Shown here piece by piece: positions 39,706-59,054 of a stretch of DNA of 64,000 bases. The notes under the pieces are model-generated. The model was given only the letters and a program-made list of their open reading frames with translations, searched no databases and had not been told where the DNA came from. Every line of letters begins with the position of its first letter. Within the stretch, counting starts at the first letter, position 1. Source of the stretch: a virus (taxonomy: Duplodnaviria; Caudoviricetes). The stretch lies in IMG/VR virus record IMGVR_UViG_3300001598_000040, positions 1 through 64,000 of that record. One strand, written 5' to 3'. The translations under genes and the position numbers were made by a program.

Positions 39706-40316
39706 ATAAAATGATTTTATTACGATTTTAAATTAGACCTTCGCCTTGCAATTAAATATTTTCTATTTTCTTCAGTCACAGTGTAGATATATGTGAACTT
39801 ATAGCCGCTAAACCATAAGCTATATATCTAATGAATATTTCGCAATCCAACTTCGCACTTGTTGGGATGTTTACCAACAACTTTCACCCGTCATTCACAT
39901 AATTTGATACATTTTATCATAATTGTTAATTTACTCAATGTTATCGCCAATTTGGGCTACTCGAACTTTAAACTCATCTTATACTCTACTTTCATAGTAT
40001 CAACAGCGAACCTTATTATTGGTATTTCTTGAGTTTGCTATAAACTACCAATTTATAACCTTATCAAGATTATTCTCCACAGGAGCGTCTATTATTAAGG
40101 CGATGAGAATAATACTTTAAATAGCAATATTCAATTGTACATTCTACCAGAACTCTTTGATTTATACTCAAGCAATAACTATATCACTATAATTATTTTC
40201 ATATATACCAAGTATCCTTAGTATAAAATCCTATCCCTCTTTAAGGTAGAACTCTCAGCCGCATAACATTGCGGTTTACACTGAGTTAATTTAAAACCAT
40301 AATAAAATCATCTTAT
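39706..40316 (-). ncRNA. Candidate large structured ncRNA (~611 nt), ROOL/GOLLD-like
   Basis: No ORF in the track; ends 40316-40287 and 39735-39706 form a contiguous 30-bp helix with three G.U pairs only on the minus strand; many internal helices and GNRA loops; next to tRNAs. Confidence 0.8.
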
Positions 40317-40320
40317 AGTT

Positions 40321-40364: not shown

Positions 40365-40480
40365 TATTCGGGGTGGTTAACCCCGATTAATTTATCTTAG
40401 AAAGGATGATAAATTTTTATGGAGTTTTAAAGTCAACTAACTGCACATCTGTTGTCATAGGAAGTTTTGCTATTCCTTTA

Positions 40481-40557
40481 TGGGTGCGAGAACAGGATTT
40501 GAACCTGTGACCTTCTGATAATGAGTCAGACGAGCTACCAAACTGCTCCATCTCGCT
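40481..40557 (-). tRNA. tRNA-Met(CAT), initiator-like body with atypical features
   Basis: Full cloverleaf, encoded CCA, unpaired 1:72, fMet-like D arm; anticodon arm UCUGA-CUCAUUA-UCAGA. Confidence 0.88.
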
Positions 40558-40639
40558 ATATGTAAAGATGTGATAACCTTAACTAAAAGGGAGGATGCAC
40601 TATGGAAAACACATTTTATTTTTATCACATCTTCATTAC
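40558..40639 (-). ncRNA. Candidate paired-termini antisense RNA (5' leader of tRNA-Met)
   Basis: 12-bp perfect stem (40633-40622 with 40576-40565) closing a 45-nt loop containing UUCCAU...CCUCCCUUUU. Confidence 0.5.
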
Positions 40640-40645
40640 ATATAT

Positions 40646-40674
40646 ATTATATCAAAAATTTTTTTTAAAATCAA
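40646..40674 (-). promoter_or_regulatory. sigmaA promoter for the tRNA-Met/ncRNA transcript
   Basis: TTGATT-17 bp-TATAAT. Confidence 0.8.
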
Positions 40675-40803
40675 ATTTTTATATAATATATTTTTAAACA
40701 TCTCTAATCCGCACGATAGTCCGATAACTTGATGTTTTGAGTTTGTCGAAAGACTTGAGAAAAAAAATTTTTTTTGAAAGGAGGCATTTAAACTAGAAGC
40801 CTC

Positions 40804-41053: not shown

Positions 41054-41283
41054 GTGTGGGCGGTTGTGTGTTATACACTAAAGACTAACCGCCTTAGCCT
41101 ATTAAATATCTGCCAAGCGTTTCAAGCACTCTTTAGTTTCTATTTAATCAATAGAAACAATCACGCATAATCCATTAGTGCTATGGATGTTTGGACTCAC
41201 TCTAAGTAACTACGCCGCATTTCAGCTTTGCGTTCTTAAAGGATGTTGTGTCATTTTTAAATCGCACACACATTTTGCGATAT

Positions 41284-41480: not shown

Positions 41481-41735
41481 TTAATCATCAATCGTTTTTA
41501 CAACGAATACATCCCATACTTCTGGACCTTTAAATTCTACATACTCCTGATCGTCATAATCAATAGTTGAATATGTAAAATCATTTGTCATCCAATATTC
41601 AGTAAATTCTTTTTGAACTAATTCATCTCTATATTCTCTTGCCTTATCAATATCATTAAAAATTTTATCGCAACAAGTATTTACCATATCATCTAAATCT
41701 GTGTAATAAATGTGTTGTACTAAATATCTTTTCAT
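41481..41735 (-). CDS. Hypothetical phage protein
   Basis: RBS-preceded ORF. Confidence 0.55.
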   Translation of the reverse strand: MKRYLVQHIYYTDLDDMVNTCCDKIFNDIDKAREYRDELVQKEFTEYWMTNDFTYSTIDYDDQEYVEFKGPEVWDVFVVKTIDD

Positions 41736-51155: not shown

Positions 51156-51896
51156 TTATAAAGTATATTCATTATTTTCTCTCTCCCAGTTATGCGCGAC
51201 GGGGATTCTTCCTACATCATCGCAGTTGCAATATTGTATCAATTTCTCTTTCAATTTATAATATAAATCTAAAAATATTTGTTTTGAACATTCTGCAAAT
51301 TCATCTTCATTAATATCCCCAGATTCATATTCTTCTATGGCATTTAACATTTCTTCGCTTTCATTATATAATTCAATCCATAATTTTTTCTTTTCTTTTT
51401 GTTCCTCTAGCGTTAAAAATTCCCATCTTATATGTTTATCATAAAATCCTTTGCACCATTCTTTTGTTACATATCCTTTTTCTCCTCCTTCTGCTTTTCT
51501 TTTTACAGTAGGATTATGACCAAATTCTTCCATTTTTTTCATATTAAAATAATTATGTACAGTAGAATATTTAATAGTTAATTCGTCTTTGTGATCTTCA
51601 TATAATCTTTTAGATAATAATGAACTGTTAAATGGCTGTTCTACATTGAAATAATCATAGAAATATTTATCTATAATTTTCTTATTACTATTTTTTACAG
51701 GCACATATTCCTCAATATACACTTTATCTATAAACAGTTTACTTTTTTTATTTTGTTTGATAATGTGATATTCACAATACTGTTTTAGTTCTTCTAAGTA
51801 TTTTTCTTTGTTTTTAAAAAATGTACATTCACTTACTTTGAACCATTTAGAAAGATTAGAGAATTTTATTTCTCCTTCTACTAGTTTATTATTCAT
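51156..51896 (-). CDS. Hypothetical DNA-binding protein next to the probable origin
   Basis: N-terminal HTH-like L.KWF.VS segment; divergent from the initiator-like gene. Confidence 0.55.
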   Translation of the reverse strand: MNNKLVEGEIKFSNLSKWFKVSECTFFKNKEKYLEELKQYCEYHIIKQNKKSKLFIDKVYIEEYVPVKNSNKKIIDKYFYDYFNVEQPFNSSLLSKRLYEDHKDELTIKYSTVHNYFNMKKMEEFGHNPTVKRKAEGGEKGYVTKEWCKGFYDKHIRWEFLTLEEQKEKKKLWIELYNESEEMLNAIEEYESGDINEDEFAECSKQIFLDLYYKLKEKLIQYCNCDDVGRIPVAHNWERENNEYTL

Positions 51897-58967: not shown

Positions 58968-59054
58968 ACCATTTTACTGTATCATTACCGAACCCATCTG
59001 CCCAATCTAAACCGCAATCATTTTGTAACCCCCTTTCCTTTATCTTACATACTT

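Follow-up and report, generated by a model that had tools for sequence, protein, structure and literature searches.

The window, which is the whole 64,000-nt stretch analysed here, comprises the first 64 kb of an 84,216-bp IMG/VR virus record that is ~54% complete and has 29% G+C. Up to 62.7 kb, the minus strand carries almost all genes, among them a cluster of tRNA genes (Leu, Lys, Ser, Thr, and Met) around a leader hairpin of 82 to 84 nt (40558-40641, minus strand), which we delimited by an inverted repeat, by folding, and by predicted transcript ends. Directly after the hairpin comes an initiator-like tRNA-Met(CAU) (40481-40557, minus strand), whose 5' end sets the 3' end of the leader. Further downstream, in the same orientation, lies a full-length ROOL RNA (RF03087; 39716-40309, minus strand), which scores 271 bits against an Rfam threshold of 99.1 and covers model positions 1-574. 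ROOL is a large RNA of phages and prophages that forms a nanocage and is often encoded near tRNA islands, and its function is not known (PMC12286853, PMC5737381). Between the promoter at 40674-40646 and ROOL, the minus strand showed no terminator-like site, and ROOL probably is co-transcribed with tRNA-Met and the leader from that promoter. One related phage (G013) has its own copy of the consensus promoter immediately upstream of ROOL. The same sample has an independent Logan assembly, which matches the leader, tRNA-Met, and ROOL at 100% identity, and the leader region is thus not an assembly artefact; the Logan contig ends exactly at the repeated promoter.

Two further features of this cluster were recorded. 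The body of the tRNA-Met is of the initiator type (A11:U24, unpaired 1:72), but its anticodon stem has UGA/UCA instead of three G-C pairs, and U stands at position 37; related phages G002-G004, unlike this one, carry canonical initiators. The 230-nt spacer between tRNA-Leu and tRNA-Lys (41054-41283, minus strand) contains a GC-rich hairpin near its 3' end without an Rfam match and may hold another structured RNA.

The promoter that the sequence-only reading had placed upstream of the leader is well founded. It is a sigma-70-type consensus promoter (40646-40674, minus strand) with the -35 element at 40669-40674 and an extended -10 element at 40646-40654, that is, TTGATT, a 17-nt spacer, and TATAAT with an upstream TG, matching at 10 of 12 positions. 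It belongs to the main promoter family of the phage, with ~18 near-identical consensus copies in the contig, nearly all just upstream of genes, and it is identical to the copy at 33289-33261. The family spans positions 3685-61334, with ~16 minus-strand and 2 plus-strand sites, and follows the pattern TTGA.., A/T-rich spacer, TGnTATAAT; a conserved TATGTAA-like start region comes after several copies. A hairpin formed from this conserved start region also opens other long leaders of the phage, and dozens of look-alikes of the promoter are found in related phages. From the -10 spacing we infer that transcription of the leader starts at ~40641-40639.

The leader is built on a perfect inverted repeat of 12 bp (40565-40576 / 40622-40633), whose arms lie 45 nt apart. 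On its own (40641-40558, 84 nt) it folds at -18.2 kcal/mol into 6 outer base pairs, a 3-nt bulge, 11 inner base pairs, and a 4-bp inner helix. The outer stem pairs 40636-40641 with 40560-40565, and the inner stem (11-12 bp, 40622-40633 / 40565-40576) closes a loop of 45 nt (40577-40621). This fold has a z-score of -3.0, an equally good one arising in 1 of 200 shuffles, and perfect inverted repeats of at least 12 bp with loops of 3-60 nt number 16 in the 84-kb contig against 1.6 expected from Markov controls. The 3' arm stops 1-2 nt short of tRNA-Met, and the stem lies within ~4 nt of the transcript 5' end if the start is at 40641-40639, as the -10 spacing predicts. The stem with paired termini that had been proposed from the sequence is therefore real, with 6 plus 11-12 bp around the 45-nt loop; given ends predicted from the -10 spacing and the tRNA 5' end, the termini of the RNA are paired as in the paired-termini antisense design. 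Release of this RNA by RNase P had also been proposed. The leader ends in U at N(-1) and A at N(-2), a known preference of RNase P (PMC4919922), and to this extent the proposal fits, with the cut itself remaining a prediction. However, the RNase P protein binds N(-4) to N(-7) in single-stranded form (PMC4919922), and therefore the AU-rich outer stem must open for cleavage.

The loop mirrors a translation start. At 40585-40610 (minus strand) it carries an anti-Shine-Dalgarno (anti-SD) word, CAUCCUCC, together with an anti-AUG; the corresponding plus-strand SD and ATG (40585-40604) rank 11th in SD strength among 3045 ATGs genome-wide on both strands and first among the 667 of the antisense strand (1-62.7 kb), which bears out the claim of the sequence-only reading that the loop is the complement of a convincing start site. 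In the entire contig, the RNA-sense strand contains CAUCCUCC a single time; the word complements GGAGGAUG at the starts of gyrA, an HPr-like gene, and ORF 35974. When paired with 113 phage start regions, the loop reaches a median hybrid energy of -15.1, compared to -11.2 +/- 1.1 for shuffled loops, and among antisenses made from real start regions only the best 10-19% do as well. Given this rank and these energies, pure chance is a weak explanation of the mirror and an unlikely one, although a look-elsewhere effect remains. GGAGG occurs six times on the antisense strand of the 62.7 kb, close to what we estimate from base composition, and pyrimidine-rich words are expected to be commoner in non-coding RNA than in purine-rich coding strands. 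Trans-acting anti-SD sRNAs of the C-rich-loop type, from Firmicutes, expose a pyrimidine-rich seed in a loop. In the predicted fold of the leader, only the 5' half of the anti-SD is accessible: CCUC is unpaired (0.96-0.98), whereas CCUU of the core pairs with AAGG at 40577-40580 (probability unpaired 0.02-0.08). With its own structure counted, the loop binds phage start sites at a net -0 to -6 kcal/mol, where the background is -1.2 +/- 1.2. The loop contains no complement of any recurrent SD 8-mer, and neither ROOL nor the tRNA emerged as a notable pairing partner in a genome-wide duplex scan.

All the collections that we searched leave the element a singleton. Exact-pattern scans of IMG/VR with the loop, the tRNA anticodon arm, and the tRNA 3' part gave 0 matches. 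In JGI metagenomes, a pattern of both stem arms with a free gap of 35-55 nt returned 6 contigs without a relative of the hairpin; all of them carry one unrelated gut hairpin between T- and A-runs. Protein clusters of neighbouring genes and Logan contigs led back to the same sample only, with identical sequence, and searches with the SLH protein and the metallophosphatase found no close relatives (the best SLH homologues reach 38% identity, the named ones being proteins of Clostridia/Ruminococcaceae MAGs). GenBank phages gave tRNA matches only, none of 21 distant ROOL loci has a similar leader, and here Rfam yielded S774 alone, below threshold (28.6 bits against 48).

We gathered 24 related phages via GyrA (50-55% identical), and in these the layout of the locus recurs. 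Promoters of the same type precede hairpin leaders that end 2-12 nt before a tRNA, be it Gln, Phe, Thr, Met, Asp, Ala, Pro, or a CUA-anticodon tRNA. In three phages (G013, G015, and G016) the stretch from promoter to tRNA is 36-37 nt and essentially one hairpin, and in two others (G002 and G003) the same promoter type is followed by an unrelated structured leader of 113 nt and then by the canonical initiator tRNA. Moreover, phages G006-G016 share a stalk (AAGAC, CAGCAA, GUCUUG) 4-12 nt upstream of many tRNAs, as at L095:1980-2042 (minus strand) and L098:4436-4513 (plus strand) among the loci L092-L102, with compensatory changes in its inner pairs. The stalk encloses 40-100 nt of variable filler, which is AT-rich or in some cases a tRNA or tRNA-like element. 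No Rfam family appears at the stalk sites among the best 150 of 197 matches, and the stalk family is apparently undescribed. A covariance model (R1, from alignment A1), trained on 11 stalks from 7 of the relatives, recovers 15 sites in their arrays. Its own training sequences account for 11 of them, and it gives no match at 40558-40641 with E up to 10 and filters off. The leader hairpin as a member of this stalk family is thereby ruled out, and the comparative support is one of layout analogy, not homology. The loops of the relatives' leaders are likewise unrelated to the loop at 40558-40641. A closing stem beside the tRNA is thus a habit of the family while the content of the loop is not, and the leader is its analogue, not a member. 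As for the arrays themselves, those at L047-L049 and L098-L101 have a CUA-anticodon (amber-reading) tRNA beside ROOL, and the relatives' tRNA arrays also contain Rfam matches to RAGATH-33, OLE-like RNA, and tmRNA.

We tentatively favor a role in cis, in which the leader (40641-40558) could well be a structured 5' leader that protects the 5' end or serves as a processing stalk. The non-coding operon would then consist of the leader, the initiator-like tRNA-Met, two small hairpins, a tRNA-like minihelix proposed from the sequence, and ROOL RNA. Transcription would begin at ~40641-40639, and a predicted RNase P cut at 40558/40557 would free a hairpin of 82-84 nt bearing a 3' OH and a 5' triphosphate. 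Pairing at the 5' end would shield the primary transcript from 5'-end-dependent decay, form a processing stalk beside the tRNA, or both. Because such a task needs the stem and not the loop, the start-site mirror would be incidental or at most a secondary function. The membership of the promoter in the main family, a stem beyond chance expectation, the hairpins that open other long leaders of this phage, and the U(-1) A(-2) end all point to a role in cis. So do the relatives, where same-type promoters lead into hairpins ending near tRNAs, stalks show compensatory changes, and G002 and G003 have a leader before an initiator tRNA. A half-paired anti-SD core that binds near background, and a loop whose target was not found, fit as well. 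Nevertheless, a role in cis leaves unexplained a 45-nt loop with the best SD and ATG of the antisense strand in 62.7 kb, the single occurrence of CAUCCUCC on the RNA-sense strand, and two more anti-SD-like motifs within 400 nt in the same operon; the miss by model R1 and the need to open the outer stem for RNase P also count against it. If the leader is only this, it is an ordinary structured 5' leader, and the gains are a map of the operon and the conserved leader-stalk family of the relatives.

An antisense function in trans, possible though somewhat unlikely, would take the start-site mirror at face value. The hairpin released by RNase P would be stable, and its loop would pair with the SD and start codon of a specific mRNA, from the unsampled part of the phage or from the host, or more loosely with GGAGGAUG-type starts (gyrA, the HPr-like gene, and ORF 35974), blocking the 30S subunit; the looser form would be an RNA counterpart of early-gene shut-off. 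The quality of the mirror argues for this, as do the sense-strand uniqueness of CAUCCUCC with its three complementary gene starts, the hybrid energies relative to shuffled loops, a strong promoter, and a released RNA that would have both ends paired; in addition, no plus-strand promoter is present to give the mirror a meaning on the sense strand. What is missing is a target. The absence of a match from the window, already remarked in the sequence-only reading, extends to the whole 84-kb contig (~54% of the genome), which has no complement of the loop of at least 12 nt elsewhere, and local alignments of the loop in the contig do not rise above shuffled controls. Nor does a target occur in the 24 related phages when as many as 3 mismatches in 25 are allowed. 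The search of host genomes for a match spanning a ribosome-binding site, suggested at the outset, was run over 185,579 species genomes and produced a single 20-mer, which lies where a gene of a Terriglobia MAG begins; we rejected this gene as a target, since the match ends at 20 nt and ~1 is expected by chance, and this organism is an implausible host for a phage of 29% GC. Also against antisense action in trans are the lack of an orthologue in the collections searched, a loop without recurrent SD 8-mer complements, the pairing of CCUU with the resulting net binding of -0 to -6 kcal/mol, and the abundance of pyrimidine-rich words to be expected of non-coding RNA. With no target in the contig or its relatives, a core half paired, and binding near background, the antisense function originally suggested has some circumstantial support but was not borne out by these tests, and since no target was found, gene silencing is no likelier than the role of an ordinary leader. 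If the loop does pair, however, engineered paired-termini antisense RNAs would have a natural equivalent in the leader, phage tRNA operons would yield regulatory RNAs as by-products of tRNA processing beside the still function-less ROOL, and there would be a handle on translation timing in large uncultured phages.

The operon contains other anti-SD elements, which bear on the same question. A second hairpin (40389-40415, minus strand), 150 nt downstream of the leader, has an 8-bp stem and an 11-nt loop (40397-40407) that is fully unpaired in the fold and is the perfect complement of AGAAAGGAU, the commonest SD flavour of the phage. The core word GAAAGGAU occurs 9 times on the sense strand, 8 of them as gene SDs, several directly behind consensus promoters. 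This hairpin is predicted to bind AGAAAGGAU-type starts at a net -6 to -14 kcal/mol, where the background is -2.1 +/- 2.7, and by modelled accessibility it is a better anti-SD candidate than the leader, which suggests that the anti-SD theme is still alive. As a colinear antisense of the start of ORF 41481-41735 it was rejected (score 35, compared to 31.3 +/- 2.9 for shuffled sequences). A weak hairpin after tRNA-Thr (40776-40803, minus strand) ends with a 9-nt match to a 16S-type anti-SD (CCUCCUUUC). Taken over 760 nt of operon spacers, complements of recurrent SD 8-mers form 3 clusters against 0.23 expected (P = 0.002), an enrichment in favor of antisense action in trans that we estimate to be nearer P ~0.02, since one of the three clusters is a T-arm-like hairpin. 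The tRNA spacers of the relatives, by contrast, are not enriched in anti-SD (4 against 2.0, P = 0.13).

These elements allow a broader proposal, which we consider unlikely: the whole operon may be a factory of anti-ribosome-site RNAs. The tRNA-processing enzymes would excise the leader hairpin (an AAAGG(G)AGGAUG-type mirror) and the second hairpin (AGAAAGGAU), and the stable RNAs would build up, occupy SDs, and shut off promoter-proximal genes of the phage or messages of the host. If true, this would parallel the T4 RegB shut-off by means of RNA alone, and the RNAs would be expressed together with an altered initiator tRNA and the ROOL nanocage. As a separate observation on the strong SDs of this phage, those at 51472, 60272, and 59021 (minus strand) are very strong and are followed by start-stop or 4-7-codon mini-ORFs, the one at 59021 lying within the leader of the promoter at 59083-59055; such SDs with mini-ORFs may be ribosome-binding stabilisers.

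It is quite unlikely that the repeat has no function as RNA. It would then be neutral, left behind by an event such as an inverted duplication or a template switch that copied a start region beside the conserved promoter-proximal sequence, or it would act at the DNA level, with the mirror a fossil or chance. In favor of this, ~1.6 of the 16 repeats are expected by chance and large loops are over-represented among chance repeats, the element is a singleton, and the count of GGAGG on the antisense strand is near our expectation from base composition. Yet the repeat begins a few bases from the predicted transcription start and ends 1-2 nt before the tRNA, as the leaders of relatives do, its folding z-score is -3.0, and the contig has no matching donor start region.

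The last reading, which had been offered as an alternative from the sequence and which we regard as very improbable, makes the plus strand functional, with a 31-codon aromatic and hydrophobic peptide (ORF 40602-40697, plus strand) repressed in cis by the antisense leader as in type I toxin-antitoxin systems. The ORF has a strong SD with 7-nt spacing to the ATG, stays open over 31 codons, and is covered by a strongly promoted antisense leader over the SD and its first 13 codons; against this, it runs through the minus-strand promoter, whose sequence dictates two thirds of it, its composition is that expected of AT-rich DNA in any frame, it has 0 homologues among 1.84 billion representative proteins, and almost all genes in 1-62.7 kb lie on the other strand. 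No plus-strand promoter of the consensus family is nearby, and the nearest promoter-like sites, which are weak (40275-40319), are separated from the ORF by the tRNA gene read in antisense as well as by a terminator-like hairpin (40368-40386). Thus, of the features of a type I system, an ORF and an antisense RNA are present while a promoter of the ORF's own and homologues are absent, and the ORF is probably not a gene.

Several known systems resemble parts of this leader. In engineered paired-termini antisense RNAs, flanking inverted repeats pair the ends and hold the antisense in a large loop, and the pairing stabilises the RNA (PMC1635301); the leader also has pairing ends around a large loop. 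The engineered stems are GC-rich, non-endogenous, and 21-57 bp long, with inserts of ~147 nt against a known ribosome-binding site (PMC1635301). The leader, in contrast, has 17-18 AU-rich base pairs with a bulge, a 45-nt loop, no target found, and a 3' end that would be made by RNase P and not by a terminator. The c4 antisense RNA of phages P1 and P7 masks a ribosome-binding site, with its 5' end made by RNase P and its targets in the same operon. If the leader acts as a phage antisense RNA, it would share with c4 the masking of a ribosome-binding site and maturation by RNase P, with the differences that its 3' end would be the one cut by RNase P and that the searches turned up no target. The c4 RNA is a listed substrate of RNase P (PMC4919922). 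The Rfam C4 model gives no match to this region, even with E up to 5.

RNAs of the 3'ETS-leuZ type, from bacterial tRNA operons, and the species 1 and 2 RNAs of the T4 tRNA cluster are freed from tRNA precursors by tRNA-processing nucleases; 3'ETS-leuZ is a sponge for sRNAs, and the T4 RNAs are stable with no function known to us. These are 3' trailers or internal spacers, whereas the leader is a 5' leader with a start-site mirror. The stalks of the related phages share with it the promoter type, a stem that closes over variable filler (40-100 nt in the stalks) and stops shortly before a tRNA (4-12 nt in the stalks), and an AAG/CUU stem base; it differs from them in lacking the CAGCAA box, in a stem that extends past this base, and in having no match to model R1. 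Finally, among transcripts of Firmicutes and phages, leaders such as those of ermC, aprE, and SP82 have 5'-terminal hairpins with small loops that precede mRNAs and block 5'-end-dependent decay. While the leader differs from them in its 45-nt loop and in preceding a tRNA, it would be like them in placing a hairpin within a few nucleotides of the 5' end if transcription starts where predicted, as several long leaders of this phage do.
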